DNA from: Nemertoderma westbladi
Lineage: Eukaryota; Animalia; Xenacoelomorpha
Direction of reading: 5' to 3'
Length of the DNA: 64,000 nucleotides
Assembly (NCBI GenBank): GCA_032718475.1
Contig: JAUCBJ010000011.1
Coordinates: 62,001-126,000 of the forward strand
The stretch's first letter is position 1, and each line of letters opens with the position of its first letter. The position numbers were made by a program, and so were the translations under genes. Below the pieces are notes generated by a model. The model was not told where the DNA came from. It did not search any database and saw only the letters and a program-made list of their open reading frames with translations. Shown one piece after another: positions 33,114-64,000 of this stretch.

Positions 33114-33115
33114 TT

Positions 33116-41300: not shown

Positions 41301-42456
41301 GTCAGTCAGTCAGTCAGTCAGTCAGTCAGTCAGTCAGTCAGTCAGTCAGTCAGTCAGTCAGTCAGTCAGTCAGTCAGTCAGTCAGTCAGTCAGTCAGTCA
41401 GTCAGTCAGTCAGTCAGTCAGTCAGTCAGTCAGTCAGTCAGTCAGTCAGTCAGTCAGTCAGTCAGTCAGTCAGTCAGTCAGTCAGTCAGTCAGTCAGTCA
41501 GTCAGTCAGTCAGTCAGTCAGTCAGTCAGTCAGTCAGTCAGTCAGTCAGTCAGTCAGTCAGTCAGTCAGTCAGTCAGTCAGTCAGTCAGTCAGTCAGTCA
41601 GTCAGTCAGTCAGTCAGTCAGTCAGTCAGTCAGTCAGTCAGTCAGTCAGTCAGTCAGTCAGTCAGTCAGTCAGTCAGTCAGTCAGTCAGTCAGTCAGTCA
41701 GTCAGTCAGTCAGTCAGTCAGTCAGTCAGTCAGTCAGTCAGTCAGTCAGTCAGTCAGTCAGTCAGTCAGTCAGTCAGTCAGTCAGTCAGTCAGTCAGTCA
41801 GTCAGTCAGTCAGTCAGTCAGTCAGTCAGTCAGTCAGTCAGTCAGTCAGTCAGTCAGTCAGTCAGTCAGTCAGTCAGTCAGTCAGTCAGTCAGTCAGTCA
41901 GTCAGTCAGTCAGTCAGTCAGTCAGTCAGTCAGTCAGTCAGTCAGTCAGTCAGTCAGTCAGTCAGTCAGTCAGTCAGTCAGTCAGTCAGTCAGTCAGTCA
42001 GTCAGTCAGTCAGTCAGTCAGTCAGTCAGTCAGTCAGTCAGTCAGTCAGTCAGTCAGTCAGTCAGTCAGTCAGTCAGTCAGTCAGTCAGTCAGTCAGTCA
42101 GTCAGTCAGTCAGTCAGTCAGTCAGTCAGTCAGTCAGTCAGTCAGTCAGTCAGTCAGTCAGTCAGTCAGTCAGTCAGTCAGTCAGTCAGTCAGTCAGTCA
42201 GTCAGTCAGTCAGTCAGTCAGTCAGTCAGTCAGTCAGTCAGTCAGTCAGTCAGTCAGTCAGTCAGTCAGTCAGTCAGTCAGTCAGTCAGTCAGTCAGTCA
42301 GTCAGTCAGTCAGTCAGTCAGTCAGTCAGTCAGTCAGTCAGTCAGTCAGTCAGTCATAGTCAGTCAGTCAGTTATATATCCTGAGATTTTTACAGAAAGT
42401 ATCCCTGAGACTTTTATTACAGTAAGTATCCCGCCGCTGTCAAGCGGGCTCCTAAA
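38306..42456 (+). mobile_element. HINE / DINE-1-like non-autonomous Helentron carrying an expanded microsatellite
   Basis: Subterminal inverted repeats aggagcccg (38337) / cgggctcct (42445), terminal hairpins (agccagc..gctggct; cccgc..gcggg) and an internal tetranucleotide microsatellite. Confidence 0.55.
39282..42372. repeat. (CAGT)n tract of about 3.1 kb (~770 units)
   Basis: Appears uninterrupted to 42356, with one interruption near the right end. Confidence 0.99.
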
Positions 42457-43365
42457 CAGTAATCATACAGTAATGTCACATTATTTAGATAGGGGGCGTT
42501 TCCTTATGAAAATTATTGTGTTTTTTAGCCATTATCCAAAATTCGGGGTAGAAAATGATGGAAAAGCTCATACAAATATTTTCCAGTTTTCTGCATAATT
42601 GTGATTTGTATAGTGGACTGTCAGACTGTGTGAGGCGAGCCACGAAAGTAAGCGAGTTTCAGCTTAGCATAGCGGTACCACTATCTACAGTATATCTCAT
42701 CGGTGTGTCTGTCGATCTGTATGTAGATCGGTATATTTATAAACATTAATAACTCAGCCAATGCTCTATTAATTATAACCAAACTTGGTACACATGTTGT
42801 TTGGCAAAAGTTTAGAAATGTTCCAAATAGAATTTTACATGTGGCCTTCGAGAAGCTAAGATACAGTAAAAGCAGTTAATTAGGTAATGAAGTTGATTAC
42901 GGTAAAAAACATAATTTAATGCCTGTTTTTCATGGAATTTAATTATTTTCTAGTAAAAAGATTTAAATAATTACACTTAAAAATTATACAGCTAGAATCC
43001 CCATACCCCATTCCAAAATAATACAATTATTCAGAGTTCGCTGGAATAAAAACAATTTTTAAATTAATTGGCCCAAATCATCCAAACGCACCTTACAAAT
43101 CTGCCATATCGCCACATTATTAATCGAACCAAATTAATTAATATACTGTATACAGTAATATTATACATGCTACCGGTACAGTATACAGTATACATCGTAT
43201 ATGAAACATTAATGGCTTTATATGATGTTTGCTTTATGTAATGTTTACTAACTGAAATATTTAATTCCGACAATCGACTCTTTTTACTGTAGGGCCCTAC
43301 AAATATATAAGTTAATTTATAATGATAGCTTCCTTCTTCCTCCTGTAAAGGTACAACTACAGTCC

Positions 43366-44533
43366 TGTTCGCGCTTTCAGACCTTTGGCAGTTTAACCCG
43401 CCAAATTAGGATGTCTTCTAGATAATAATTCGCTTTTAGCCTATGACAAGTATTTGATTCACTACACTAGTCGAAACCAATCTGTGCGCGATCATTCACC
43501 CGCTGGATATACCCGGGAGATTGGGTTCGACGGCTTAATCGTATTGCTATGTAGGCCTAATGTATTATTCGACTGACAGTATTATATAATCTCTGACAAT
43601 ATTATTCACCTTCGGGAAATATTAACAGTTCCTTTAGGACGTGGCGCTCTACCTATATAAACAGAGTTATGACTTAAACTACTCACAACGATATGGCTTA
43701 GTTATAATTCACATATATGGCGCATTCTTTAGGAAATGCTTCGTTATCAGTCTCACTCATACACAATGCTGCACAATACTGCACACTGATCTGCCGATCT
43801 TCACTGATTTTAGTCACATATAAAAGGAACACGGACCGAATCATGTAGGGTCTATCAAATAACATTAGATTCACTTCAAACCACTTTAACATAAGTCACA
43901 ATCGTTATATGTAACCTTTCTCTCTTACCTTCGGTATATCAAGAATATTGGGTTTTCGGGGTTATTTATCGTTATTCCAAATATAATAATTCATCAACCA
44001 TATTATGAAGAACTGACAGTAAATAGCAGTATAACAATATAACAGTATGCACAGGTTGTTTGATTAGGTATGGTATGTTATGTTTAGATATGATAACGGA
44101 TATATGTCCTTATAATTAAGCCTACTAGTGTAAGACTAAAAACTGGAAACACGGAGGTGCCAAAAGCCGGTTCTTAGGCTCTGGGCAAAAACATAACACT
44201 GAACCGATAAGAATAATCTTATTTACAAAGGCTTCCACCCACCACAGAGAAAGAGCATACAGATAGGAAAATTCAGTTCAGTAGATCTGTGATAGGTCGA
44301 AATCAAAATCAACTCAAATCCTATTGGCAGATACAGAAAGCAGGGCTGTGGGGCAACTTTCCCAAGCTGGTTGGACAATCAAACGTAGCCCAGATCCCTT
44401 CGCACAGCAAATCAGCCAATCAGCCGGTAGCTTGCGCTATTCGAGTTATAGATCCCTTTTTAGAGTATTCCAGCGCCTGGGGGGAACTGGTTAGCAAGGC
44501 AAACGAATCAGTTATCCCACAAAAGCTTTTACA
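43366..44533 (-). repeat. 3' LTR of the BEL/Pao element
   Basis: Matches 59325-60492; I saw only 2 substitutions by eye. Preceded on the sense strand by the purine-rich gggagcgg (PPT-like, 44534-44541). Confidence 0.97.
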
Positions 44534-45005
44534 CCGCTCCCAGAAAATGGGATTTATGTCTATAAAATATAACAAATCACAGTTTCTAAAATATAAAAAA
44601 TACTCTAAACAGTTAGTCTTTCTTACGCAGACGGCGTTTACGCAGTTTTTTGAGGCTAGCAAGAGTCCTTTTCTCTTTGGGGGGAGCCACTTTACTAGGT
44701 GGGCTATAAATCCTGGGTGAAGGGTGCAATATGATTGCATCAGAAGGTGTAGGATTATGGTCGGGGTATCCGCTGTTTCGATATGCTTCTCCTCGAGCTG
44801 ATTTTCCTCCGCTCGTAGCTGGATACGTTCATCCAAAAACTCTCGCAGAGAATGGGGTTGTCTAAGTGCGATATATTCTTAGAGATTCTGGATTTCACAA
44901 TCGAACTGAGATAAAGACAATTCGTTTATCGCTTGGACTTGCTGTTACAACTTACGTTTATCTGAACAAACGTAAGTTTCCTTTCTGATCTTTGTAGAAT
45001 AGCGT

Positions 45006-46142
45006 TTAACTCGTTTGGTACAACGTTCTCCGACACTCTGGTGACAGGTTATATCGTGTCAAGCCGGGATGATGGTAAGGGTTAAACGGCGATATTAAAT
45101 GTCCGCGTCCCAATCCGGCTAGGTAGGATGGGCTAATATCTAAGAAACCCACAACTGGGGTGCCACCGACTAATCGTTCAGGTAACACTAGATCTTTGAG
45201 CAGTGAGTACAGCTCGGGAGGATCCGTCATACTAATAGGATCAAGAGTCTGAGGTCTCACTAGGGAATGAGGAGCTCTGATCGAGTATTCCGAAACTCTG
45301 ATCATTGGTTTATTTAAGGATCGTCTGAGTCGAACGAGCGTAGGTGATACATTGAACAAGTTTCGCTCGAAACTCCCGTAAGTATAGCGAGTAAAACCGT
45401 GTTCAAAGCAACGTCTCCGCGGATGTTTATGCCTTTCCGTTTGTTGGTTGGGTCTTGGGCATTCATCGCAATAATACCCAAAAACGTACGTCTTGTAGGG
45501 GAAACGCGAGTGATCTTTCTCCAGCTTACAATATTCCTCCATCCGTTCGAAGCTATTCGGTACAACAGGTAGCGGTCGATCGGCGGTAAGATACATCATA
45601 GGGGAATCGAGCCGTTTGAGTTCTACCATGCGGTCATGATGTATACCTTGAGGATATCGAGTTTCTAGATTTTGTTGACTGGCAATATTGAGATATGTTT
45701 CTATCAGGAATTCCAGATTATCGTTGAAGTCGCTGCGTTTATCCGGCTCCTCAACGTCTTCTCTTTCGAGTCTGTTTCGAATAGAATTCTCGTGTTCCAT
45801 TCTCGGTTTATCGTTCCGCCTCCGCTGGGTAGGATATTTCAATCGTACCATTTCCCTTTTGGTGTCGACATTGTCCGTATCGTGTAAATCGATAGGATGA
45901 CCAGTAGTTAAGAAGTCCACATACGTACCATTACGATGCGCATAGCGAGCGGTGAATTTCTTATAGTCCAACTCACGCGTGAGCTGCTCTTGGGACATTG
46001 GCGGTTCGATATAACGATCATCGTCCTCCGCAGCAGTTGGACCAGCGTCGCCGTCAACCAGCGTCAAGCTATCAACAAACGCTTGTAAAGGTAGAGTATA
46101 TCGCTCCCTGATACCAAGATCATCTTCTATCAACTCAATCAT
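45006..46142 (-). CDS. Accessory ORF (378 aa) of unknown function between pol and the 3' LTR
   Basis: Sense-strand ORF; hydrophilic with no signal peptide or TM segment; CxxC...H.H....C..H cluster; tagCAG acceptor 2 nt upstream of the ATG. Confidence 0.7.
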   Translation of the reverse strand: MIELIEDDLGIRERYTLPLQAFVDSLTLVDGDAGPTAAEDDDRYIEPPMSQEQLTRELDYKKFTARYAHRNGTYVDFLTTGHPIDLHDTDNVDTKREMVRLKYPTQRRRNDKPRMEHENSIRNRLEREDVEEPDKRSDFNDNLEFLIETYLNIASQQNLETRYPQGIHHDRMVELKRLDSPMMYLTADRPLPVVPNSFERMEEYCKLEKDHSRFPYKTYVFGYYCDECPRPNQQTERHKHPRRRCFEHGFTRYTYGSFERNLFNVSPTLVRLRRSLNKPMIRVSEYSIRAPHSLVRPQTLDPISMTDPPELYSLLKDLVLPERLVGGTPVVGFLDISPSYLAGLGRGHLISPFNPYHHPGLTRYNLSPECRRTLYQTS

Positions 46143-47763
46143 ATCTGCTATATAAATTTATCCATATTATAATGAGTTTATATTTAGGCGAGCGGGCGTC
46201 GCTGCCTACCCCAATCAGCCCCCGGACAGTGCGAGATCCTCAGCGCCGATGTGTTGTCGCCGCTGTACTTTCGCCAACGACGTAGCCGCACAACGACAAC
46301 GACAACCGGCACAAGTCACTCCACTGTCCGTCCCAAAGGCTTAGATGTACTTCAGGTTTTTCTTGGAGAGTTAGGTTACTTTCACGATTGCGACTAGCTA
46401 CTGTAAACACACTTTAGCAGTAACATTCACCTATAAACTCACAAATACCACACAACTGGTCACAACTACGCACATTCGGGCCATTTGTCCGTTAGTCAAT
46501 GCCTTCCAGAATGTCACTGTATTATTATGTATCCTTGGATACTAGCAGTGCGCTATTTATTCCCTATGCTATTCAATGGGACAAGCTTTCTATTGTTCTT
46601 TTAACTCAATTCTAATTCTAGCGTGGTTGTTGCCATGGTGACATTATGCAAAGCTAGCGGTAGAATTAGGGTAATTCCAATGCATACAGATCTGGGATGT
46701 TATTTAATAGTATTCTTTAATAGTCAATGTTCTGTTTTATACATGACTTTATGAATTTTATCGGCTATTGACTATGTTTGGGAGACTTTCGCACACTCAT
46801 ATGCATAATAAGATAAATCTCCGCTCCCTTGATCTATTAATTAATGGAATTTTGGGAATGTTATACATTGCGTAAAAATGGCAATTTATTAAATTCATTA
46901 AAAGGCATGAATTTAAATTATTCCCTGAAATTTTATTATTTGATAATTAAATGGACATATTTTGATTCTAGAACATGTCTGGGGACACAAGATCCTTAAT
47001 TCTATGACAATTGTCTTTTTAAGAATATCGGTAAATGCTACGATATCTTAATTGACTAGAATTGTTGAAGGATCTGAATTTTACAGATTTTGATTTATTA
47101 GATTTGCAAATATTAAATAATTAATATTTGAGATGGGCACCGATTTATTCCAGAACTTGTCTGGGAACGTTAACCACTGATTCTAGAATTTGTCTTTCAA
47201 GTATATCGGTGGGTGCCGCGATATCTTAATCGACTAGAATTACAGATGGTCAAAGGGTTTAACAGATTTATTTTGCGTTATACGCTACTGTTAAAGGGAC
47301 ATCACGCTACTATATGTATTATTTAATATACGGTATGAGAGCAATATCGCACGAAGCAATGTCAGTGTGAAGAGGCAAGTCGTTTCCAAGGTCTACCCAG
47401 AGCTTGGTTTAGCCGAGACACGAGGATCTGAACTTTGCATTCCTAATACTCTGCCTACCAATAATACTTTAATATAGTAGTGGCTTTATTGTACTTTAAT
47501 AAGTACGGACATTTCATCTTACTGTAGTTACGTATTTATAATATAATACGGACAGTAAGGAAAGAGAAAAAATAATTATTTCTTCGCCGTCGCACTAAAT
47601 ATAATATAAGTAATTACGTACGCAATAAACACGAATATATTGCACTATTCTACAAAATAATCGCTAAATAATATTCTACTAAATTAAATAAAACGATTAT
47701 AATAAAACTACATAGTAATACATACATAAATATAAAATAATAAAATAATATAAAATAATAGAG

Positions 47764-50700
47764 TCACACTGTCGGTTGAATTAGGGAAGTGGTCGTGGGA
47801 AGAGTTTCTTGTCTTCCATAGTTTCCGGAGAGCTCTCTGTCTCTTTCCAGTAAACATAAACGACCCACTGGGCGATTGAGCTGTTGAGTCTCAAAGACTA
47901 TCCCTGGTTTCTTAAAGTTACGCCGCATGACGACGAGCTCTACTGATCGCGCACCAAACCATCGCTCGAGATATGAGTCTCGATGATACGTCCTGTTTGC
48001 CATCGCTTACGTGGGAGATCGGGGTCCACAATAAGCACCATGTCTCCAGCGCTGACGTTTTCTTGCTGCGCAAACCACTTAGTTCGAAGTTGTAGAGTGG
48101 GCAGGTAATGTTTCTCGAAATGGTCAGCGAAACGACGGGATAGCAACTGCATAAGTTGCCAGGTTCGACGGCAGTACTCGTCTCCGTCTGTGATCTCCGA
48201 TCGTGGGAGCATGGCTACGGGTTTCTTCAGTAGAAAGTGCGCGGGTGTTAGCGCTTCCAGGGAATCAGGACTTGAAGAGACTGGCATAAGCGGTCTTTCG
48301 TTGAGATAGGCGGCGATTTCCTCCATTAACGTCCGCAATAGTTCGTCGGTGAGATAAGCGCGACAAGGTACAATAAAGTGGAACGCAGTCTTCACGCTCC
48401 TAATCAATCTCTCCCAACTTCCTCCCCACCAAGGGGCGTCGGCGGCGTTGAAGGTCCAGCTAGACGCTGTTATCTTTAGCTGATCGTCCACCTGTCTTTT
48501 GTTCCAGTCCTTTACGTAAGCTTGAATTTCGTTGTTGGCGCCAATGAAGTTCGTTCCCTTATCCGATCTCATCGTGTTACTGGTTCCGAAACGAGCGATC
48601 TGTCGTCGTAAACTCAACACGAAGCTGTTGGTGGATAGATCGTTTACCATATCGAGATGGATAGCTCTACAAGTCATACAAACGAAGATGACACACCATC
48701 TCTTGACTATAGTCCGGGCACGATATACTTCAATAGGGCCAAATAAATCCACACCGGTATTAGTAAAGGGTGGTTCGTAGAAGCTTACTCTTTCCCTAGG
48801 TAATTCTGCCTCTCGCTGTGTCAAAGGCCTACTGAATGCTTTCCTACAGGGTATGCAGTTCCTAAGGACTTGGTTCAGAGCCCTACGGGGTTTATAAAAA
48901 TAGTAGCGAGTTCGAATTTCGCTCAGAACTCGTTCTCTTCCCGCATGATACAGTTTGCTATGAACATCTACAATCATCTTGATTTGTATGTCAAGATTTC
49001 TAATGAGTATGGGAAACTTAGTGTCAAAGGATAAGGGGGCGTTGGTGAGCCTGCCTCCAACACGTATTAACCCATCTATCATGGTACTAGAGAAGCGATC
49101 CCTTAAGCGCATCTGCGGATTTCTTAACAACAGGAAATACTTATCAGGATCCTCATAGCATTGTAGGAGTCTCAGCATCTGTTTGTTGGTTTCATCATGC
49201 TCCTGGTAACTGATCTTCTCCTTTAGAAACCTGTCGGATATCTTGTATTGGGGAAGGTCTTTAACAATATGGACTCGTGCAGATGTTGATGGAGCATCAT
49301 CACTATTGGTCTTTGTCCCAAAGTAACGATGATGAAAACATCGTTTTAAATAGGTGACGGCTTTGCAGAGCCGATTCCAGGTGCTGTAGTGACATATCGC
49401 TCTCTGCAAGAGGGGTGAGAGTCCTTGTGCGATATCTGGTATTCCAGATTTCCAATCCTTGTCACGGATTTCCAAGACTTCTTTAGTCGTGGTGGTGGGT
49501 TTCTGATCCAAAGCATCCTCTCCGGAAGTAAATAATACAGATAGATCAACCGCAGGTTTAAACAACTTCGATTTACTCGCTCGAGTTTTGGGTTTAACTT
49601 TCTCCGCTCCCTTGGCCTGTCTGATCTCTGCTGTTGTGAGATGGGGAGGCCATTCTTCTTCTTCTTTGTAGAGAAAGTCGGGTCCACCTAACCATTCGGG
49701 AGTATTTACCAATTCCTTTGGAGTCGCTCCTCGGGAAGCGATGTCTGCTGGATTAATCGTTCCGGGGCAATGTCTCCATTGGTCCATCGTCGTGCGACTA
49801 AGTATGATGGCTACCCTGTTGGTAACGAAGACGCTGAACTGACAGACTTCATTGGTTATATACTCTAACACGAGTAAAGCGTCGGTCCAATAGACAGTTT
49901 TCTCTAATGGATATTCAATCTGTTCTGTTACATTCCGGCCGATGGCTGTAGCGTATAGAGCCGCTTTTAACTCCGCTCGAGGAACTTTCAACTTGTTGTT
50001 GATTAATGCCTTAGAAGTAACCAAGGCGACTTTGATTCCATCCGGAGTTTCCACTCTTAGATAGGCTACTATACCTATTCCCATATCGCTGGCGTCTCCA
50101 AACACATGGAGTTGATAGGAATACGTAGGGAGAACATGACCAAAATATGAACGGGAAATTATAAAATCCTCGATAGCCGGCAGAGAATCTTCCCATTTCA
50201 TCCACTTCTTCAATAATTCTCCCTTAAGTGGATCGTCCCATGAGTGGTTTTCAAGCCATATTTGTTGTACCAAACTACGAGCAATCAATATAACTGGGCT
50301 AATAAATCCCAATGGATCGAAATAAGTGCTCAGTATACTTAAGCAAATCCGTTTGGTTCGAACTGGATTATCTCGCTGTTTTAGCTGGAAAAACAGAATA
50401 TCTCGCTCTGTGTCCCATTTCAAGCCGAGTGTCTTGGTTTCTGGCAGATCATCTTTGATCAAATCTAGATCTTTCGCCCCTCGATCTTCTGCAGGGATCG
50501 ACTCCAGAAACTCACGGGAGTTGCTGGTGAATTTTGTTAATCGAAACCCACCTCTTTTTAAGCACTCTACCGTTCCTTTAGCGACCTCAATGGCTTCCTC
50601 AACTGATGGGAGGGACTTCAGATTGTCGTCCATGTATATGTCTCTCTTGATGTTGTCGATCACTTCCTTAGAGAATGCCTCTCGGTTGTCCTCTGCAGTA

Positions 50701-52112
50701 GTACGCACTACCGAACAGGCGTTGGAAGGGCTTGAGATTATCCCAAAGGCCTGGATGGTCATCCAGTACTCCACCGGTTTCTGGTTGAGGTCTCCTTCGG
50801 GCCACCACAGAAATTGTAGACTATCTCGATCCCTATCTAGCACCTTGACTTGTAAGAACATGCCTTCTATATCGGAGGCGAAAGCAATCGAATATTGTCT
50901 CAATCTTAAAAGAATTCCCAACAAAGATTGAAGTAAGTTGGGTCCGGGTAACAATTCAGAGTTAACTTCATGTGGTTTACCGGGTTTAGGAACGTAATGG
51001 TGAGTTAAGTAATACGTTCTTTCAGTCACAGGTGTTTCTTCCGGTACTCTCTCCGCGTATCCCTTACTAATAAATTTCTCCAGCTGCGTTTGATACATTG
51101 CTTTAGCTGAAGAATTAGCCGTAAGGCGTCGATGGAGTTGCGCGATTCTTTTTTCCGCCAAGGGTCTGTTATTGATGAACTTCGGTTCTCTCTTGCGGAA
51201 AGGTAGACCGACTTCATACCTACCTTGATCTTTGAGAAAACGTGTAGTTGTCTCTTGGATCTGCTTGGCCCTTTCCTCTTCCACCGACAAGGCTTTATCG
51301 TAGGAATTGGGCTCTACCGCCTCTTGCGTAAAGAATCTTACGGCATGTTCATCTCGAGTCTTGGCGTTACAACGCTCAATGACGTCATTTAACTCGTCGT
51401 TATAAGCTTCTCGTTCAGTTGGATAAAGAAGTTGACATAAGTTCACTTGGTTTTGCCAAGCCTCGTTTTCCTTAAGGAGATCGATGATATTCTCCTCATC
51501 AAAAAGCTGGTGAATGTCGTCGTTATCTGAGGAGTATGGGGTTCCCTCAGTTAAATCGTCTCCCTCACTAGTATCATCTTCCCATTCACTCACCTGGTAG
51601 ACGCGCTCTTGCGGTAGTCTTTCTCTGAGTGTTCTACGGGAAGGGCCAGTAAAGTACCAACCTACTCTAGTTCTTACCGCATAGGTCTGTAGTGGCTGCG
51701 GTTGAGCAGGCCGTTTCTCCAATGTCTCCAGCGCCTCATGCGCGTTTTGGCCGATGAGTATTTGCACTCCAGGATAATCAGTCTGGAATCGAGGTATCTT
51801 AAGATGTTGGATGCTCTCATCCTCGTCCCAATTATAAAGGTCTGCTTGAGTAGTAACGAAGTTCTTTATAGCCACCATTTTCACCGACCTTATGCTATGT
51901 TCTCCTAGTTCGTCTTGTGGGGTGGACAACGCGCCTATATAATAATCAGCTGTTACTGTAGATTTCCAAACTTGCATAATGCCGGACATGTTTAGCTTAG
52001 TTCGGAACTTGGGTTGTCCAACGAAGATGTCTTCGGCTAGTTCTTTATCCATGAATGTTCCTGTGCTGCCGGAGTCCAGGAGGGCGTTCACTATATCGCT
52101 TGCGTCCTTCTG
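47764..52112 (-). CDS. BEL/Pao Pol (protease, RT, RNase H, integrase); C-terminus frameshifted into 47764-47950
   Basis: ALLDSGS (PR); SDIEGMFLQV and YMDD (RT); FDPLG, HVFGDAS, PRAEL, YWTD (RH / peptidase A17 region); H-H-C-C plus GVDLFGP, SDKGTNF, GGSWERLI (IN). Confidence 0.95.
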
Positions 52113-53348
52113 GGCTCCTCCCCGAGGCGCACCCATGAGGCGGACGCTGTCCCACTACCCTTGGGGCCAGTCCGACTCCGTTTTTATCAGACCGGGCCGG
52201 AGGGTAGCCCGATGCTTCCCGGGTTCACTTTTCAATCCCCCGATCACACCGGCACAGCTCGTCGGTGTAGCCAGATGGTCGGCTACTGTCAACTTACTGT
52301 GGCCTGACTGTACATTGAGCCAACTCAGAGAGTCAACCGGCGGGTGGACCAGTCGATAGCGATCGAGCATCAAGGTCGCCCTTGAGCCAAACCGACGGTC
52401 TTGTCCCAAGCGGGCTTGCGCTACCCACATGGAATATTGACCGTTTTCACCCGCCTCGCCGGCAGTATTGAGGGGAAGTCGGTTCCGCAAACAATACTGA
52501 CTAGCTCGAAAGCTAGGAACAAGTAACCACTTACCAGTCACTGTACACGTGTACTCAACAGATGTTCACAATATCAAGTACACTACGGTAAACACAAAAT
52601 CTGACGCATACCAGAGGACATAATCGGGGAAGACAAAATCGGTGACAAAATCAGAGGGGACAAAATTGTATCGACTAATAAAAAGTCAAGAGTACTTTAT
52701 TTTACCGACAGGGTAAAATAACTTTGTGTGCACAAAGTATGCTGGGGCGCAGTAAAATATGGTCCTACTAATAACCGGCGGCGACTGAACCAACCGGCAA
52801 GGTTTCCCACACTCACTCGCAGTGGCCATACATACACTCACGTATACCACGTACACACACAAACCACAGATTCCAGAGTATCATTCACTCGGACCACACT
52901 ACAACACCAACCCCTCCTTGCAGCCGATATTCCGGGTGCCACCTCCATTCCAATAGTAGTACCAACAGAATCATCAGAACCTGTCCATTCCGATGCAACA
53001 CCTCCATTCCAATAGTGCTACCCTGGGAAAAAACACGCTTTGGCAACCGATCGGAGACAGTACAGAGTCTGGTCAACTCATACATACCAAACATAGACCT
53101 ACCACATAAACCACATAAACCACAGATCACACTAAGCCACCACCCCTACTGTGTACAGGACTGGCAGTACGGCAACAGGCCGACTAGACGGTACCACGGC
53201 ACCATGTTAATTCATGGTTCGCTAGACACGAGGGCCTTCAGTAACTCCCTTGCACTATACTCAGGATTTAACGTGCCCCCAGACCCTCACGAGTCCGCCG
53301 CCGCCTGTTAGAGCCACCCCTATAGAGACCTCACCTCTTTGGGTAGCT
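52113..53348. mobile_element. Unclassified 1236-bp insertion splitting gag-pol
   Basis: Flanked by the 6-bp direct repeat cttctg (52107-52112 / 53349-53354). Removing it restores the in-frame VHGPQK-DASDIVNALLDSGS. Confidence 0.85.
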
Positions 53349-54926
53349 CTTCTGAGGTCCATGGACCCGTAACTGGACTACAGGAAATTCTCGGATTCCT
53401 ACATTGGAAGTTGGTGCTTTCCACGATGGTTGTCGCTCAGAAGTAGTTAGAGTGAAGTCGTTGTCTGTATCCTTTTCATATGTGAGTGCTCGATACACTG
53501 CGGTATTTATCATGTAACAGGATTCGTTTTCGTCGGAGAACTCGTCTGTATAGAATCCTTCCATCTCAGATTGATCAGTGTCGTTCACATCACTGAATTG
53601 GACATGTAGCTCGGAATCACTTACCTGATTCGGACTATTTCGCTCGAATTCAGCGTGCAACAAGATATGATGCTTCGCACCACACTTTGCACACCTTATG
53701 TCAGAGAAACAGGTACGCCGTTGGTGTCCTTGTCTGAGGCAATTATAACATAACCGCTTATCCCACATGACTTCGCGTCTCTCCGTTAATGACTTCTTCA
53801 GGAATTCATCACACATATTCAAACGGTGGGTCCCGTCACACAGCGCACATTTCGGTTTGATGTTACTTACCTTATTTTGAGTCACATTGTGTACACTTGC
53901 CTTTTCTTCGGGCTTTCTCACCGGAATTCTCTTGGGAGATGTGGGAGGAGTTTTTCTTACCTGTTCTCTCCTGTCATTTGCTCGAGACTTGAATTTACTT
54001 ACCTGATCTTTAGGCATTTTATTGACATAATAAGATCTATCAGTGTCTTTCCCGCTATCTTCTCCTTGAGAAGTCTGGCTTTCGCCGTCGTCTGTATAAC
54101 ACACTGGTGTTACCTTTCTCCTAGAGACGGGTTTTTCACTTACCTTGTTTTCCGGTGTCTTCTCTCTGGACAGTTTCAGGAGCTGTAATTTCACTTCTCC
54201 ATCTAGGAATGACATGAGATCAGCCATGGTAGGGTCTCGTCGTTGTTGTTCCATCATATATAACACTTTCTTATCCCAGCGTGTACCTACTCCACCCTTC
54301 GGTAAAGTAGAAGCCACTGCTCTAATAACCATAGCATTCTGATACTCCTGAGACTTACCTAGCCAATCTAATTGTCTACAGATCTCCTGAATCTCATCGG
54401 AAAACTCGATAATTCCGCTGCTAATAAACTTTCGGGGCGCTACCAATTTTGCATACAAATACCCAGCGATGTTATTCCTATTACCATACCTGATGTTTAG
54501 TGTATCCCAAACTTGTCTTAATCCGTCTGGATGTCCAATAAACTTTAACGCCATTAACTTGGGAGATCCTTCCAAGCACTCGATGAGGTATCTAAGTTTT
54601 TCTCCATTAGATAGTACAGAGTTCTGTATGTTATCTTTGTAATATTCATTAAAAGGTAACCATTTCATCTCATCTCCATTGAACTTGACGATCTCTCCCA
54701 CCTTTACCGCTTGCCGGGCTTCGGTTCTAGCCATTTGACGCGTAAAACTTTCTTGGGCCATCGTGTTATTTAATATCGAGTTATCGGTATATAAATTTCT
54801 CGGATTATGATCAGTTCTATAGGGAATGTCATTATCAACAAGTCTATAATTACCCTTAATAGGGTTCACTATAGGAGTTTCTACTTCGCTAGCAGTATAT
54901 GCGTGTAGGCTCCACACCTTGCGCAT
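53349..54926 (-). CDS. BEL/Pao Gag (capsid-like DUF1759-type region plus three zinc knuckles)
   Basis: KFNGDEMKW..F...EKLRYL...LEG...RYG; CALCDGTHRLNMC, CYNCLRQGHQRRTC, CAKCGAKHHILLH. Confidence 0.93.
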
Positions 54927-57078
54927 GAGATACTTCAGACCTAACAGGTTGACACATTGTTACAGGGGGTGGTGGTATACCCCTTTGTGTATTTACTAAT
55001 TTATCGCGTTCTAGCGCGATACTTTGCTGCACTTCTTGCAACTCAAGCCTACTTTCCCTTACTGTGCCCTTGAATTGCTGAACCGTCTCCTGCATCTGCC
55101 CGAGCAGGAGATCCATCCCCCGCCGTCTCTCGTCCACCCATTCGACCGCCGAAGCGGGAGTCGCCAACGTTGTAGCGAGCGGACGAGGGACAACGGGCGA
55201 CAAATCAGGAATATTTCGCTCGGGGTCCAGGACCTGAACTGTCTCCTGGGCAGTTCTACGGGGCACAGGTAGCTTAGTGCTATGCAGAGGGAATTTAGAG
55301 GTAGTTTCAGGGAGCACAGGTGTGTCTATCACCGAAGGGGTGATTTCAAGAACAGGCCTAATTATTTCAGGCTCATCTACTATAGTAGGGAGTCTTTCTA
55401 TTTTAATTATTTGGTCTGTGGGCTCTGTACTACCTAAGTTGGTGTTATTTAGTTGCCTTCTAACAGCTGGAGGCAAATCAGGCAATTTCTGACGGTGGAA
55501 TGTTCTTTTACGTCTGCTTAGACGAGATCTATTTCCTTTGCCTTCAGTATCGGTGGTATCGCCTTCCTCAGATGATGTATATCCCTGTCTTTTGGGAGTA
55601 GATCGATTCATCATCTGCATATTACTAGCTGCTAACTGTTTATTTATGCAGTCTTGATTCTCCTGAATGTTTTCCAATTCTAATTGGGTGGTTTCTTCAG
55701 CCGCTTTCCGTTCTGCTTCTGCCACTTTTGCCTCTGCCGCTGCCTCTGCCGCTGCCTCTGCCGCTTTTGCCTCTGCCGCTGCCTCTGCCGCTTTTGCCTT
55801 GGCCGCTGCCTCTGCCGCTTTTGCCTTGGCCGCTGCCTCTGCCGCTTTTGCCTTGGCCGCTGCCGCCTTTCTTTCTGCTTCTGCAGCTACCACTGCTGCT
55901 TTCTTTCTGTCTTCTATACGTTTTTTCTTTACTTGTTCTTCTTGGACTCGTGTGATGCGGAGTTGTTCATCAAATTTAGCCTGATTCGCAGCCCTCATTT
56001 CCACATCGATGGCATCCAACACAAGCTTGGTTCCTTCACTATTAGGGCTAAGTCCCTCTAACCTTCTCCTCAACTCGTCATCACCTAAAAAACGTTGATA
56101 GTCTGACAGATAGATGTCAATGGCATCCCTCTTATGCGGTTTCTCTGCCGTCGCTTCACTTTCCACTTGGGAAAAAGTAGCGTCTGTTGATTCTCCATGG
56201 GTTGAGCGCTCCTCTAGCTGAGCTTTCCACTGAGCTGTTCCTTGAACCTGGAGACTCAACCTTTGAAACCAAGTCTTTACGGCAACTTGCAACGACGTGT
56301 CTTGTCTTCGTTTAGAAGCCTCCTCAAAGGCCGATAATATTAGCCTGATTCGTAGAATTCTTTCTCTAACTTGATAAAGCAGTTGTCCCTGCTCTTGAGG
56401 TCCTTGTGGTTGTTGAAACAGTTGTCCTTTTACTCGCTCCATAGAGCTGAAGAATCCCTGTGCGTATCCGGCTGCGGACCTCTTCCACACAGCTGGATCT
56501 ATGGTTTCCTTGGCTACTCCCATCCGGTGTATGTCTTCCCAGGCAGCTTCTGATAAATCAAACGGGAGTCCGGGTCCGGGGAAGTTCCATTGCGACTCGA
56601 CAATAGACTTCAGTTCTTCACTCGTGTATCCCGCATAATTATCTTTAGTTGATCGTTGACTTCTCGCCCAATCGATCTGGTGTTCTTCCACTGCAATCAA
56701 TAACCTAGTGAGTACGGCTGCAGGAAGGATGAGAAGGGGATCCGAATAAACCGCATCCATCATCTTTGCTCCGCGTTCTGGTGTCAGTTCTACAGTATCC
56801 TCACTACTGGAGCTGTTGGGCCGTTGAGAAGTAAGTTCTTGGCTCGCGGGTTGTTGCTGTTCTGCTGCTTCTTGGTCCCGCTTGACCTGAGCTCGAGTGC
56901 CTATGATAGACCTACGATGTTGGACCAGCCTAGGTTCTGTTATTACTACAGGAGGGATGACCTTCCTCACAGTGGGAGGTGAACTGAACTTACGACTAGA
57001 CGGTTCTACGCCTCTATCTGAGTCGCAGATAGTTACATCTAATAAACTGTCTGACAGGTTCTGCTTAGTATCAGACAT
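54889..57078 (-). CDS. Upstream ORF or Gag N-terminal extension (729 aa, coiled-coil and Ala-rich repeats)
   Basis: Long sense ORF overlapping gag in a different frame; 30-bp tandem repeats encode AKAKAAEAAA (55720-55870). Confidence 0.8.
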   Translation of the reverse strand: MSDTKQNLSDSLLDVTICDSDRGVEPSSRKFSSPPTVRKVIPPVVITEPRLVQHRRSIIGTRAQVKRDQEAAEQQQPASQELTSQRPNSSSSEDTVELTPERGAKMMDAVYSDPLLILPAAVLTRLLIAVEEHQIDWARSQRSTKDNYAGYTSEELKSIVESQWNFPGPGLPFDLSEAAWEDIHRMGVAKETIDPAVWKRSAAGYAQGFFSSMERVKGQLFQQPQGPQEQGQLLYQVRERILRIRLILSAFEEASKRRQDTSLQVAVKTWFQRLSLQVQGTAQWKAQLEERSTHGESTDATFSQVESEATAEKPHKRDAIDIYLSDYQRFLGDDELRRRLEGLSPNSEGTKLVLDAIDVEMRAANQAKFDEQLRITRVQEEQVKKKRIEDRKKAAVVAAEAERKAAAAKAKAAEAAAKAKAAEAAAKAKAAEAAAEAKAAEAAAEAAAEAKVAEAERKAAEETTQLELENIQENQDCINKQLAASNMQMMNRSTPKRQGYTSSEEGDTTDTEGKGNRSRLSRRKRTFHRQKLPDLPPAVRRQLNNTNLGSTEPTDQIIKIERLPTIVDEPEIIRPVLEITPSVIDTPVLPETTSKFPLHSTKLPVPRRTAQETVQVLDPERNIPDLSPVVPRPLATTLATPASAVEWVDERRRGMDLLLGQMQETVQQFKGTVRESRLELQEVQQSIALERDKLVNTQRGIPPPPVTMCQPVRSEVSHAQGVEPTRIYC

Positions 57079-58402
57079 GTTTATGTGTACAGTTGAATGT
57101 CTACTGCTGTATTACAGTCTGAGCAAGTCTAGTAACTCAGTATTAACTGCTAGCCTAGTAATTAATTACCGGTACTGCTACTCAGTGTAGCGTGATATAT
57201 ATAATATATTAGAATACCGGTATGATTATAGTATATATAACTATTATTACAGACTAGGTTTATCACAGAATACCGGTATAATTTTAGCACAAATATATAT
57301 AAATATATAATAGGCCTATCGGGAATACCGGTATACAGCTTACAGTTTTGTAGTATATATAATTATAATTCTGGACTAGAATTAATTATAAAGTACCGGT
57401 ATAGTTTCAGCCTAAATTTATAGAAATAAAGATAATAGGCCTATCGTAAATACCGGTATATCAATTATTTTAAATAATTGAATTTCTGAATTTTAGGGTT
57501 ACTTGGTTACTTTACTTACTTTATTACCGCTATTTGAGCAGTAGTCCAACTGATATTGAGACCTAATGGTTGTATGGTAGGCCTACTATTTATAAATCGT
57601 TAGATTTGATTTATAATATATATATACCCGTTTTAATGGGTTTTGTCAGTATTTGAAATAAATGTTATTATTTCTGGGGGGTAATCACTACACAAAGCGG
57701 TACGCTTTCAGTGAAGTGTTACTTATAGGACACTAAAACAAATAATGCTAATTTACCTAAGTTACTTAATACTACAAATTACGTACAATTCGGGTGAGAT
57801 TACAATCTCTAAATAAACACAAAAATTTACAAAAAACACAAAATACGAATTTTCAGGGTAATTTTACAAGAAGTCTACAAACCAGCCTAACAAAGGGTTA
57901 GAAATCTGGTTATTACAACGGACAGGGTACTACGGTATTTGAAAATAATAAGTAGTAGTAAAATACACTGCGTTGTCCAGATAGGAAAATACCACCGCCT
58001 GACGACCTATAGCCGTATCGCTATAGGTTCTACGTTATGTATCACAGAGTGTTCCTACCTAGAAATTAATAGAGCTAATCGAACGTGCCTATCAACCACT
58101 TTACAATACAAATATAATGCCTACACTAATTACTTTCGGAAAGCACTGTACACTAAACCCTGAATTAGGTACGAGTACTTGTACACCAGATAATCAGTAG
58201 TTAAATATACTTGAACAGCTAAAAGAACCACGGCATCTGCTGGAGTGACCGGTGCACAAAATCACCAGTCTTTACCTACGCCAAGCAGCCCGTGTAGTAC
58301 CGGGGTTAATTTAACTATAGCGGTATGTATAACAAACATAATTACTGTAGGAACAAACTTGGGGAATGAATGTTGCGAATAATTGCATAAACTCTGAATA
58401 AT

Positions 58403-58970
58403 AAATATTACGCTACGCGTACAAACTACTCAAACAAAATGCAGACCAAATACTGACAGACTACTATCAAGCCTAAATAAACTACAGGACATGCAGACTC
58501 CGAAATGATTAGGTAGTATGCGTTCTAACCCAGTAGTACGACTTATTCTTTAGATGGGGGTTTACCTTACAGCTTTGGCTGCCCCTACTTCCTAACCGTT
58601 CTTTATCGGACAGAGGCTCTACACACACTGAAATCCTTCAGACCTAATAACAGCCAGACAACTATCCAGCCTACAAATTATCTAAATAAATATTATACGC
58701 TACCTGTACAGACTACACAAACAAAGTACAGACTAAACGATGGCAGACTACTCTCAAGCCTAAATAAACTACAGGACATGCAGACTCCGAAATGATTAGG
58801 TAGTATGCGTTCTAACCCAGTAGTACGACTTATTCTTTAGTTGGGGGTTTACCTTACAGCTTTGGCTGCCCCTACTTCCTAACCGTTCTTTATCGGACAG
58901 ATGATCTACACACACTGCAATCCGTTCAGACTTAACAGCAATCAGACAACAGCTCAGCCTACAAATTGTC
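58403..58970 (-). repeat. Tandem duplication of a ~287-bp module in the retrotransposon 5' leader
   Basis: aagcctaaataaactacaggacatgcagactccgaaatgattagg... at about 58469 and 58756; the same doublet occurs in the second element at about 62965-63530. Confidence 0.9.
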
Positions 58971-59313
58971 TGTACAATCTGATCAGGCTTACACGCCTTC
59001 TGTTCAATACTGGCCTACAAACAAATAAAACTTGACAGAAATAAGTAAAAATCTCAATAAAAAACCAGGGCTGCAGTCCCTGATTAATTAGTAAGGCCTA
59101 CCGGTATATAATTATCAAAATCGAATAATACTGCTGTACCTATACTGCTGTAGGTACCGGTCCGGATGATCAGGCAGTCAGGCCTACTGGTTACCGATCG
59201 ACCGGTACTTTCGACTAGATTGCTTACACCGCAATCCAGAAGCAATATCTGTTATTGTTCTTACCAGAACAATATTAAACTGTATTTAATGCCTACACTG
59301 CAATACAGACTAA

Positions 59314-59324
59314 ATATCCGTTAT
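59314..59324 (-). promoter_or_regulatory. Non-tRNA primer-binding site candidate (self-complementary to LTR 60052-60062)
   Basis: Sense ATAACGGATAT abuts the LTR end and is the exact reverse complement of sense ATATCCGTTAT within the LTR. Confidence 0.7.
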
Positions 59325-60492
59325 TGTTCGCGCTTTCAGACCTTTGGCAGTTTAACCCGCCAAATTAGGATGTCTTCTAGATAATAATTCGCTTTTAGCC
59401 TATGACAAGTATTTGATTCACTACACTAGTCGAAACCAATCTGTGCACGATCATTCACCCGCTGGATATACCCGGGAGATTGGGTTCGACGGCTTAATCG
59501 TATTGCTATGTAGGCCTAATGTATTATTCGACTGACAGTATTATATAATCTCTGACAATATTATTCACCTTCGGGAAATATTAACAGTTCCTTTAGGACG
59601 TGGCGCTCTACCTATATAAACAGAGTTATGACTTAAACTACTCACAACGATATGGCTTAGTTATAATTCACATATATGGCGCATTCTTTAGGAAATGCTT
59701 CGTTATCAGTCTCACTCATACACAATGCTGCACAATACTGCACACTGATCTGCCGATCTTCACTGATTTTAGTCACATATAAAAGGAACACGGACCGAAT
59801 CATGTAGGGTCTATCAAATAACATTAGATTCACTTCAAACCACTTTAACATAAGTCACAATCGTTATATGTAACCTTTCTCTCTTACCTTCGGTATATCA
59901 AGAATATTGGGTTTTCGGGGTTATTTATCGTTATTCCAAATATAATAATTCATCAACCATATTATGAAGAACTGACAGTAAATAGCAGTATAACAATATA
60001 AAAGTATGCACAGGTTGTTTGATTAGGTATGGTATGTTATGTTTAGATATGATAACGGATATATGTCCTTATAATTAAGCCTACTAGTGTAAGACTAAAA
60101 ACTGGAAACACGGAGGTGCCAAAAGCCGGTTCTTAGGCTCTGGGCAAAAACATAACACTGAACCGATAAGAATAATCTTATTTACAAAGGCTTCCACCCA
60201 CCACAGAGAAAGAGCATACAGATAGGAAAATTCAGTTCAGTAGATCTGTGATAGGTCGAAATCAAAATCAACTCAAATCCTATTGGCAGATACAGAAAGC
60301 AGGGCTGTGGGGCAACTTTCCCAAGCTGGTTGGACAATCAAACGTAGCCCAGATCCCTTCGCACAGCAAATCAGCCAATCAGCCGGTAGCTTGCGCTATT
60401 CGAGTTATAGATCCCTTTTTAGAGTATTCCAGCGCCTGGGGGGAACTGGTTAGCAAGGCAAACGAATCAGTTATCCCACAAAAGCTTTTACA
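59325..60492 (-). repeat. 5' LTR of the BEL/Pao element
   Basis: 1168 bp; sense TGTAAAAGC...GCGCGAACA. Confidence 0.97.
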
Positions 60493-61051
60493 AGTCCCAA
60501 TCCCAATAAACATTAACTTGGTCATTTTGGCGGCCAAAATTACCAAAATGGCCAAGTAAAAACTGCGGTATTCATGAAAGGAACTGCTGAGGCACGTTGG
60601 CTTGTCAATCACAGCCAGTGAATACAGGCTGAGTGTTAGTAAAGCCCAGCATGTTGGCGCTGAGGTAGAGTTCTGAGGTAGAGTTCTCTCTACCTTTAGG
60701 TAGAGAGAAAGGCTCCAGTGTAGTAATGGCTGGGCTCGCCACTGTAGTAAACAACATGCCCGTAAGAGTGCAGTGTGAGGCGCCCTAACTTATTATTTTC
60801 TACATATTTTTTACTAATCTAATAATTAACACACCTTTACCTGTCACTTAGGTTAAAAAGCAGTGTGCTAGCACTTGCAGCGTAATAATTAATTATTTAC
60901 TTTAATTCTATTTGATTGGTATTAAAAATAACAAGTTCATATATTTAATTTGTAAAAATTCTTTAAAATATGAGAAAAGTACTTTACATAGATTTTTCTT
61001 TATTTAGCTGTTTAGTACGCTATAATATAAATGCTCTCATAAATACAGTTA

Positions 61052-61301
61052 GGGGGGGGGGGGGGGGGGGGGGACTGGACGCAATAAAAATGCATCACTC
61101 TCTAGGGGAAATTTGACGCAAATAATAGATGATTACTCTCAAAAATAAAACTGTAATGTTCATTTATGTTTAATTTATTGTTTTGGTTAAAATAACGTGC
61201 CACTATAACCTGCTCCTTTCCCTAAATTGAGAATTTAACATTGAGGAGGGATATTAATTCGCCAAGGCGAGTTTTGCGTCCAGTCCCCCCCCCCCCCCCC
61301 C
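61052..61301. mobile_element. Small MITE with poly-G/poly-C termini
   Basis: TIRs (g)n-actggacgcaa / ttgcgtccagt-(c)n. Confidence 0.75.
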
Positions 61302-61450
61302 TTGTCTCGATAAATAATAATTACATCATCATAAATTCACCCAAATATGCCGACTCTGTTGACTGTTAGCACAGAGCCAGAGCCTGATATTATATTGTTT
61401 TCAGTTACTATCGCCCTCGAATTCAGACCCAGCTACTAGAAATAGGCCGC

Positions 61451-64000
61451 TGTAAAAGCCTTTGCTGAATTGCCCCGTTATTTTTATTATCTTTTACATT
61501 AAAATACTCTGTAGTTGATTTAATAAGTGTAAGAGACCGTATTATTGCTGTATCGGTGTTTTTAGAGGATCTAAGACCTATTTCCTCCGTATGTGTACTG
61601 TGAAAGGCATATTTTATGATTCTATGGCAATTCGTGACGCAAAGGGGTGATAGCTACTCTTGAACAGTAGTTACTATGACTACGGTTAACAGCTGACATT
61701 CATACGTGTTGATTTCCTTTGTTCTACGGCGTCTCTCAGTTCAGTCAGCCAATGAGAGCGTTTTTGTGGCTCCTTGTACAGAAAATTTCCGAGAAATGAC
61801 GCAATGCCTATGTGCAGTGTTTACATTCAGTCCTGAGCCTAAGAAAGAACGGCTTGGAAGTATTTTGTGCCTTACTGTTTTTGGTCTTACACTAGTAGGT
61901 TTAATTATAAAGGGCATATATCCTTTAACATACCTAAAGACTACTGCTAACTGATCATACATCCTGACTGCTGAAACATTGCAAACTCGTAACAATCAGT
62001 GTTCAGTTGTTGTTTTATACTGCTATTTACTGTCAGTTCTTCATAATATGGTTGATGAATTATTATATTTGGAATAACGATAAATAACCCCGCAACCCAA
62101 TATTCTTGATATACCGAAGGTAAGAGAGAAAGGTTACCAATAACGATTGTGACTTATGTTAAAGTGGTTTGAAGTGAATCTAATGTTATTTGATAGACCC
62201 TACATGAGTCAGCCTGTGTTCCTTTTATATGTGACTAAAATCAGTGAAGATTGGCAGATTAGTGTGCAGTATTGTGCAGCATTGTGTATGAGTGAGTCTG
62301 TTAAAGAAGCAATTCCTAAAGAATGCGCCATATATGTGAATTATAATTAAGCCATATCGTTGTGAGTAGTTTAAGTCATAACTCTGTTTATATAGATAAA
62401 GCGCCACGTCCTAAAGGAACTGTTAATATTCCCGAAGGTGAATAATATTGTCAGAGATTATATAATACTGTCAGTCGAATAATACATTAGGCTTACATAG
62501 CAATAAAAATTAAACCGTCGAACCCAATCTCCCGGGAATATCCAGCGGGTGAATGGTCGCGCACGGATTGGTTTCGACTAGTGTAGTGAATCAAATACTT
62601 ATCATAGACTAAAAACAGATTTAATATCTAGAAGACATCTTAATTTGGTGGGTTAAACTGCCAAAGGTCTGAAAGCGCGAACATTAAAGGATATAGCTTC
62701 TTTATTGCAGTAAGCAATAAAGTCGAAAGTACCGGTCGACCGGTAACCAGTCGGCCTGACTGCCTGATCATCCGGACCGGTACCTACTTCCGTATAAGTA
62801 CAGCAGTATTATTCGATTTGATTATATATGCCGGTAGGTCTTAATAATTAATCGGGGACGCCTGGTTTTTATTGGGATTTTACTTAGGCCTATTTCTGTC
62901 AGTTTTATTTGTTTGTAGGCCAGTATTGAACAGAAGGCGTGTAAACCTGATCAGATTGTACAGACAATTTGTAGGCTGAGCTGTTGTCTGATTGCTGTTA
63001 AGTCCGAACGAATTGCAGTGTGTGTAGAGCACTTGTCCGATTAAGTACGGTTAGGAAGTAGGGGCAGCAACGCTGTAAGGTAATCCCCCAACTAAAGAAT
63101 AAGTCGCACTACTGGGTTAGAGCGCATACTCCCTAATCATTTCGGAGTCTGCATGTCCTGTAATTTATTTAGGCTTGAGAGTAGTCTGCCATCGTTTAGT
63201 CTGTACTTTGTTTGTGTAAGTCTGTACGGGTAGCGTATAATTTTATTTAGATAATTTGTAGGCTGGATAGTTGTCTGGCTGTTATTAGGTCTGAACGGAT
63301 TGCCGCGTGTGTAGATCATCTGTCCGATTAAGTACGGTTAGGCAGTAGGGGCAGCGAACGCTGTAAGGTAAACCCCCAACTAAAGAATAAGTCGCACTAC
63401 TGGGTTAGAGCGCATACTCCCTAATCATTTCGGAGTCTGCATATACCGTAGTTTGTTTAGGCTTGATAGTAGTCTGTCAGTGTTCGGTCTGTATTTTGTT
63501 TGAGTAGTTTGTACGCGTAGCGTAATATTTATTATTCAGAGTTTATGCGATTATTCGCAACATTCATTCCCCAAGTTTGTTCCTACAGTAATTGTGTTTG
63601 TTATACATACCGCTATAGTTAAATTAACCTCGGTACTACACGGGCTGCTCGGCGTAGGTAAAGACTGGTGATTTTGTGCATCGGTCACTCCAGCAGATGC
63701 CGTGGTTCTTTTAGCTGTTCAAGTATATTTAATTACTGATTATCTGTTGTACAAGTACTCGTACCTAATTTAGGGTTTAGTGTACAGTGCTTTCCGAAGT
63801 AATTATTGTAGGCATTATATTTGTGTTGTAAAGTGGTTGATAGGCACATTCGATTAGCTCTATTAACTTCTAGGTAGGAACATTCCGTGATACATAACGT
63901 AGAACCTATAGCGATACGGCTATAGGTCGTCAGGCGGTGGTATTTTCCTATCTAGACAACGCAGTGTATTTACTACTACTTATTATTTCAAATACCGTAG
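61451..64000 (+). mobile_element. Second, related BEL/Pao element: 5' LTR (61451-62683) and leader, continuing beyond the window
   Basis: Starts tgtaaaagcc and ends gcgcgaaca. 62015-64000 is a close inverted homolog of about 57930-59995, while the first ~430 bp of the LTR are strongly diverged. Confidence 0.92.
62684..62695 (+). promoter_or_regulatory. Non-tRNA primer-binding site candidate of the second element (complementary to 61917-61928)
   Basis: TTAAAGGATATA abuts the LTR end and is the exact reverse complement of TATATCCTTTAA in its own LTR. Confidence 0.7.

Follow-up and report, generated by a model that had tools for sequence, protein, structure and literature searches.

Two BEL/Pao-type retrotransposons with long terminal repeats (LTRs) in the xenacoelomorph Nemertoderma westbladi likely prime their minus-strand DNA with a piece of RNA from their own LTR instead of with a tRNA, a reading to which we assign a probability of roughly 0.7 on the basis of sequence comparisons. 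The elements lie in a stretch of 64,000 nucleotides (nt) that was analyzed as a whole and is called the window here (GenBank assembly GCA_032718475.1, contig JAUCBJ010000011.1, positions 62,001 to 126,000 of the forward strand); coordinates below are those of the window. In both elements, the primer-binding site (PBS) that follows the 5' LTR is perfectly complementary to a site inside the same LTR, and the PBSs of most related families pair with their own LTRs as well, in many cases across an LTR intron. Self-priming outside the Tf1/sushi group is therefore well supported.

Complementarity between the PBSs and the LTRs

The PBS of element 1 (59314 to 59324, minus strand) reads ATAACGGATAT and adjoins the LTR, and its candidate self-primer (60052 to 60062, minus strand) reads ATATCCGTTAT and occupies LTR positions 431 to 441, 727 nt from the LTR end. 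In element 2, the PBS (62684 to 62695, plus strand) reads TTAAAGGATATA and likewise adjoins the LTR, and the candidate self-primer of 12 nt (61917 to 61928, plus strand; LTR positions 467 to 478) reads TATATCCTTTAA and lies at the end of a conserved island (61884 to 61928). Neither PBS starts with TGG, and no TGG occurs within 40 nt after either LTR. Element 1 contains a second PBS-like copy (59245 to 59255, minus strand), which reads ATAACAGATAT, has one change, and is preceded by GAACA, as is the site at the LTR end. A preliminary description of this DNA had reported these five short sequences, the second copy with one mismatch, the lack of a TGG-type site, and the perfect complementarity of the 11-mer of element 1 to its own LTR, and all of these were recovered at the same positions, with the match extending to a 12-mer in element 2. 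Its central claim also held: two positions differ between the elements, and both partners have changed so that pairing is kept. Each PBS pairs with the LTR of the other element over only 7 and 5 nt.

A complement of at least 11 nt in the LTR of element 1 occurs at only 52 of 120,318 other window positions. When the LTRs were shuffled with dinucleotide composition preserved, the match was reached at offset 0 in 1 of 2,000 shuffles for element 1 and in none of 2,000 for element 2; with offsets of 0 to 6 allowed, the counts were 6 and 2 of 2,000.

The candidate primer of element 1 lies in an island (60052 to 60099, minus strand) that is 88% identical between the two LTRs, includes a TATA-like motif, and ends at the primer 3' end. 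Across the island (LTR positions 394 to 441), 43 of 49 positions are identical; in the adjoining sequence, the count falls to 24 of 49 on the upstream side and 33 of 85 on the downstream side. The island had been described as lying in an otherwise diverged part of the LTR; the island itself is confirmed, but the divergence is limited to the 5' 40% of the LTR, with 94% identity beyond position 496.

Variants of the family were retrieved as contigs from four public runs, among which the best-supported differences were used, with 158 others outside this set. They are unphased because no contig piece spans both primer and PBS. In one contig of run X3, the LTR site reads ATATCTGTTAT, which is the exact partner of the second PBS copy of element 1. 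At the PBS position, the variants ATAACAGTTATACC (X3) and ATAACAGTCATTGC (X5) were each seen in one contig. Several of the family's contig variants have a common core of 6 to 7 nt. A contig of run X1 diverges one base past the primer end, and a contig of run X5, for which an RNA origin is only a guess, stops matching at the primer end.

No GT/GC..AG junction in the window elements gives a better match to the PBS than the contiguous one, and an intron at the window 11-mer was accordingly rejected. Farther upstream than the core, a further compensatory pair, which would be the third (GGAC/GTCT versus GGGC/GCTT), was seen by eye only, and it was left out of the evidence as the extension is not significant. 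A search of Rfam gave no match in positions 57000 to 64000.

Pairing in related families, contiguous and across an LTR intron

Relatives of the elements were taken from a metagenome scan as 79 loci with 35 to 42% identity (from the best 80 of 552 matches in an incomplete scan). Independent placement of the 5' LTR end, from the 3' LTR and its flank, was possible in 16 related families. Seven of the LTR starts were hand-picked after the polypurine tract; this set of 16 does not include L020, whose LTR extraction failed, and L044, whose PBS is identical to that of L040. The rest of the 79 loci are family duplicates or have no readable 5' LTR end.

The preliminary description had named the loss of complementarity in other family members as an outcome that would speak against self-priming. 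Instead, the PBS pairs over 10 to 15 nt with its own LTR in 12 of the 16 families, with letters that differ among families. Three families pair contiguously over 10 to 12 nt, like the window elements. The other nine pair over 10 to 15 nt only across a GT(A/G)AG..AG junction, which indicates an LTR intron, and this spliced pairing was matched in none of 150 shuffles for eight families and in none of 60 for one. TGG is absent from most of the families; L047 and L061 have TGG sites, and their pairing with their own LTRs reaches only 4 nt; L071 shows a 10-nt fit only with a non-consensus donor.

Two pairs of sister loci are informative about this pairing. L074 lacks exactly the GT..AG segment of its sister L079, and the same 11-nt pairing is found in both, which links the spliced and contiguous forms (a DNA or a spliced RNA source is conceivable for L074). 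Between the sisters L090 and L091, three exon-1 letters differ, and the three facing PBS letters change too.

Among 17 further loci in which the LTR end was guessed among ACA sites, 11 fit (7 spliced and 4 contiguous) against a null run over the same guesses. A later set comprised 29 BEL/Pao loci (L084 to L112) from contigs of prokaryote metagenome-assembled genomes; these contigs most likely represent DNA of animal hosts that was binned with the prokaryotes. No LTR pair was present in 20 of these, and of the 9 with a repeat pair, 4 were excluded because the end fell at a contig edge or was not LTR-like. Three of the five tested (L090, L091, and L105, the last repeating the L025 family) fit across introns. 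The distant locus L099 has a TGG site.

The fitting cases share further features. The base second from the primer 3' end is A in 25 of 25 cases, the window included, and the last base is C or T in 24. The PBS partner always begins 0 to 6 nt after the LTR end, and it stands in place of a TGG site, not beside one. An A(A/T)TAAA motif lies downstream of the primer in 19 of 24 relatives (L047, L061, and L052 are left out of the counts over 24 relatives). By eye, without a statistical test, no TATA box was evident at a fixed distance upstream of the relatives' primers. The AG that follows a pyrimidine tract before the relatives' LTR sites was considered as an initiator and dropped, since splice junctions explain it. 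No BEL relatives were found among viral contigs, and four viral-contig matches to a 16-nt island motif proved unrelated beyond the motif.

Two side observations concern the LTR ends of relatives. In L020 (2140 to 2165), L074, and L105 (4670 to 4690), the LTR 3' end is TATA or AACT instead of CA, beside a fitting PBS. An apparent gag start codon lies within about 20 nt after the LTR end in L048 (207 to 230), L052 (155 to 180), and L027 (1150 to 1170), and in L027 it falls inside the PBS.

Structure and BEL/Pao identity of the elements

Element 1 is 17,127 bp long (43366 to 60492, minus strand) and lies between two LTRs, whose ends were fixed by the 3' LTR copy and the target-site duplication AGTCC (60493 to 60497 and 43361 to 43365). 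The 5' LTR (59325 to 60492, minus strand; 1,168 bp, TGT...ACA) and the 3' LTR (43366 to 44533, minus strand), within which the 11-mer recurs at 44093 to 44103, differ at 2 of 1,168 positions; together with the duplication, this indicates a young insertion. A purine-rich stretch of 8 nt, the polypurine tract, precedes the 3' LTR.

The open reading frames (ORFs) of element 1 lie on the minus strand. The first (54889 to 57111; 740 amino acids [aa]) contains Ala-rich repeats and has no Pfam match. The gag-like ORF (53331 to 54959) has a DUF1759 domain and two Cys-His motifs. The pol ORF (47940 to 52154) consists of a protease-like start, a reverse transcriptase (RT; YMDD), an RNase H region (Peptidase_A17), an integrase, and DUF5641. 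An extra ORF of 383 aa (45006 to 46157) without a Pfam match lies between pol and the 3' LTR. The protein domain matches are thus DUF1759, Peptidase_A17, Integrase_H2C2, and DUF5641, and the protease-RT-RNase H-integrase order of pol is collinear with that of P0005. Relative to P0005, about 14 residues are missing from the N-terminal part of the RT, and pol does not continue in the frame of gag; this copy may therefore be non-autonomous.

The closest proteins are BEL/Pao polyproteins with 34 to 41% identity, those with a named source coming from marine invertebrates and one fish, and PF05380 occurs in all 120 homologues listed. The placement in BEL/Pao that had been proposed is supported by these domains and homologues. 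No chromodomain match was found among the element 1 proteins in Pfam, and membership in the Tf1/sushi group is ruled out by this and by the BEL/Pao domains.

Element 2 is a sister of element 1, judged by sequence identity. Its 5' LTR (61451 to 62683, plus strand; 1,233 bp) was bounded by alignment to element 1, and the 3' end of the element lies beyond the window. Its noncoding leader (62696 to 64000, plus strand), which exits the window, is 93% identical to that of element 1 over 1,327 columns. The elements stand head to head, with 958 bp between them (60493 to 61450) that include runs of G and C. A 287-bp tandem duplication is present in the 2.2-kb noncoding leader of both elements (58409 to 58923 and 62962 to 63506).

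Phylogeny and origin

A quick RT-RNase H tree (LG+G4) was built from 43 of 87 rows, namely, the labelled families, the TGG clade, and nine distant BEL/Pao loci on which it was rooted. The window element forms a long branch (1.06) that is sister to a clade mixing self-complementary and TGG families, with SH-aLRT values of 90 for that clade and 99 for the clade together with the window element. The branch is also deep, and the element's best identity among the BEL/Pao loci compared is 43%. A tree joining the window element with all self-complementary families was not rejected (approximately unbiased test, P = 0.475). The result fits either one origin of self-priming with a return to tRNA or two separate origins. 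An independent origin of self-priming in a BEL/Pao lineage had been suggested from the window; self-priming outside Tf1/sushi is well supported, but an origin special to this lineage is not, the trait being widespread in marine BEL/Pao elements.

Proposed mechanism

In the mechanism that we propose, the RNA would start at or upstream of the LTR site, and the LTR site would fold onto the PBS. Cleavage of the RNA at the helix 3' end, made by the RNase H of the element by analogy with Tf1, would free a 3'-OH, and RT extension from there would yield strong-stop DNA covering about 730 to 755 nt of the LTR. For most relatives, the LTR intron would have to be removed before the primer exists. Since the relatives' primer needs the upstream exon, the primer is probably internal to the RNA, and a primer consisting of the first 11 nt of the mRNA is not supported. 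That both LTRs have kept the intron suggests that splicing acts on the 5' copy and spares the 3' copy. The window elements would carry a ready-made primer, either because they lost the intron or because they belong to a deep lineage that lacked it from the outset.

The covariation of PBS and LTR need not mean selection, because copying of the self-primer back into the PBS could produce it as well. Such recopying would explain the perfect Watson-Crick matches, even those to a spliced junction, and would make the covariation a trace of the mechanism and not solely of selection. The shared primer end, with A at the second-last base, is at most an indirect sign of an RNase H cut at the primer 3' end.

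With a little less confidence than for the window elements themselves, we favor a broader scenario in which a large, old marine branch of BEL/Pao has swapped tRNA priming for an internal RNA self-primer. In most families, this primer would be assembled by the spliceosome across the LTR intron, which would spare the unspliced 3' LTR copy from cutting, and the window elements would be either a form without the intron, in which the primer is ready-made, or the product of a second, independent invention in a deep lineage. An internal primer that is spliced in relatives would go beyond the Tf1 model and would tie reverse transcription to RNA processing. The proposal makes a sharp prediction: the RNA on the 5' end of the strong-stop DNA should consist of element sequence and terminate at 60052 or 61928.

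Evidence against self-priming and alternative explanations

Several observations weigh against self-priming of the window elements. The motif TATAAAG lies 12 nt before the 11-mer of element 2; the TATA-like motif had been placed about 10 nt upstream, and it is indeed present, at a spacing of about 12 nt, as TATAAAG in element 2 and TATAAGG in element 1. With the usual spacing between a TATA box and the RNA start, a functional TATAAAG would let transcription begin past the primer, about 18 nt beyond its first base. The motif of element 1 is not a consensus TATA box.

Predicted folding gives mixed results. The global fold of element 2 has the primer-PBS helix only for starts no more than 7 nt from the site (probability near 1, falling to 0.27 at -20 and 0.03 at -40), and that of element 1 never forms it (probability 0 for four starts); 800-nt folds are unreliable, but the outcome lends no support. 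When pairing energy was tested with G-U pairs and bulges permitted, element 2 was significant (P = 0.003) and element 1 was not (P = 0.10). Upstream of the core, additional pairing falls short of significance in the window (P = 0.33 and 0.10) and is weak in 24 relatives (2 of 24 below 0.05; Fisher P = 0.02). The window primers lie 727 to 755 nt from the LTR end, versus 46 to 278 nt in 23 fitting relatives, AATAAA or ATTAAA was not found in the LTR of element 1, and the RT of element 1 itself looks damaged.

The relatives, too, contribute adverse cases. L052 fits neither contiguous nor spliced pairing, and L086 does not fit (8 nt; reached in 6 of 100 shuffles). Six of the 17 loci with guessed ends miss, three of them fitting post hoc only and three having truncated LTRs or no fit. 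L090 and L091 break the rule of A at the second-last base at their longest match and conform only when that match is trimmed by one base. Finally, because the relatives have common ancestors, the cases counted are not independent of one another.

The best-surviving alternative, which we consider unlikely, is itself a form of self-priming, with the primer coming from the 3' LTR copy or the RNA 3' end (in cis or from a second RNA) and the 5' start lying downstream of the 11-mer. This would suit the TATA-like motif, which at 12 nt upstream would start the RNA past the primer, as well as the unusual distance of the window primer from the LTR end, the lack of a conserved AATAAA downstream of it in the window LTRs, and the CA that follows the site in both elements. 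The motif of element 1 departs from the TATA consensus, however, and most relatives (19 of 24) carry A(A/T)TAAA on the downstream side of the primer. In addition, the relatives retain the intron in both LTRs even though the primer needs splicing, which suggests that the 5' copy or a separate RNA primes and that the 3' copy is unspliced.

Less probable still is a structural or regulatory role of the helix in the RNA, such as a packaging or dimerization signal or a translation or splicing switch, with priming achieved by other means. Long-range leader pairings are common in LTR elements, no primer has been observed, and predicted hairpins flank the PBS. One of these, near the LTR 3' end in U5 (59343 to 59364, minus strand; local fold), is kept in element 2 at 62644 to 62665 through a C-G to U-G change, and another lies just after the element 2 PBS (62700 to 62722, plus strand; local fold), with similar inverted repeats in the X3 and X5 contig variants. 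Such a role would not account for a partner whose position is always 0 to 6 nt past the LTR end, as is required of a primer, or for perfect Watson-Crick matches over 10 to 15 nt; moreover, the pairing is absent from TGG-type relatives, and no other primer site is present.

Priming by a host tRNA half or another small RNA, with the LTR match incidental, is very improbable. Because the PBS letters differ between both elements and among more than 20 families, with the LTR changing alongside, a fixed host RNA cannot explain them, even though half-tRNA priming exists in some Ty1/copia lineages (PMC6317226) and a 6- to 7-nt core is common to several family variants. Chance complementarity in AT-rich sequence, for which the energy test of element 1 (P = 0.10) and an 11-nt match in 1 of 60 crude shuffles could be cited, is close to refuted by the shuffle nulls (1 and 0 in 2,000), the matched changes, and the recurrence in 12 of 16 families.

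Other features of the window

An uninterrupted ORF of 2,349 aa (26079 to 33128, minus strand) encodes an ABCA transporter with two ABC_tran domains, two ABC2_membrane_3 domains, and R1_ABCA1. Animal ABCA genes usually have dozens of introns, so this single-frame ORF may be a retrogene. A single-frame ORF of 352 aa (12084 to 13142, plus strand) has a PPP1R35 C-terminal domain. Inverted-repeat arms (34939 to 38188) surround an RT fragment of the long interspersed nuclear element type (35531 to 36289), and a four-base microsatellite of about 3.2 kb occupies 39200 to 42400. No tRNA gene was found in the 64-kb window.

Comparison with known self-priming systems

The family Belpaoviridae is described by the International Committee on Taxonomy of Viruses (2021) as having an 18-nt PBS for tRNA-Arg or tRNA-Gly, host-tRNA priming, and a genome of 4.2 to 10 kb (PMC8742986). 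The window elements resemble this family in their LTRs, gag with DUF1759, the protease-RT-RNase H-integrase order of pol, and the polypurine tract of element 1, but they lack a tRNA site, and element 1 is 17.1 kb long.

A literature search found no report of self-priming in BEL/Pao, although an earlier mention in subscription papers, supplements, Repbase Reports, or GyDB is possible. The Caenorhabditis elegans element Cer7, of the BEL/Pao type, is said to have a proposed self-encoded primer, reportedly a tRNA-like sequence near the 3' end and not an LTR site; nothing confirming this was found. The words primer, PBS, tRNA, and priming do not occur in PMC3118150, and the accessible portions of PMC554778, PMC2774666, PMC8556966, PMC8220671, and PMC13524379 contain nothing on BEL/Pao self-priming. 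Five other sources describe or predict self-priming in Tf1/sushi, Tcn1, and TAR (PMC6317226, PMC7175516, PMC4600332, PMC6934838, and PMC3601003).

In Tf1, the RNA's initial 11 bases anneal to the PBS, and RNase H cleaves between bases 11 and 12 (PMC7175516). Like the window elements, Tf1 and Tf2 of Schizosaccharomyces pombe, Tj1 of S. japonicus, Tosmo1 to Tosmo3, and the Tf1/sushi group have a PBS of about 11 nt directly after the 5' LTR that pairs with a site in their own LTR, and they have no tRNA site. According to a preprint, U3 divergence in the Tosmo elements ends 9 bp before the primer, and Tf1-type self-priming needs a three-duplex structure (10.1101/2022.12.06.519325). The divergence that stops near the Tosmo primer resembles the island of the window LTRs. 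As for the flanking duplexes of Tf1 (the pretzel), the window elements have predicted local hairpins before and after the PBS, and the global fold forms the helix in element 2 alone. The Tf1/sushi elements are Ty3/gypsy chromoviruses and belong to a different superfamily. A further difference is that relatives of the window elements would build the primer across an intron.

For the plant lineages Tcn1 (Ty3/gypsy) and TAR (Ty1/copia), self-priming was predicted from LTR complementarity of at least 10 nt starting 0 to 5 nt after the LTR (PMC6317226), and both window elements show such complementarity, with 11 and 12 nt. They differ from these plant elements in superfamily, and an intron-split primer is not mentioned in the accessible text of that source. 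If self-priming of the window elements is true, self-priming would be present in all three LTR superfamilies, as opposed to the host-tRNA priming of the Belpaoviridae reference description. It would also account for the failure of PBS searches on many BEL/Pao elements and would release such elements from control by tRNA fragments.

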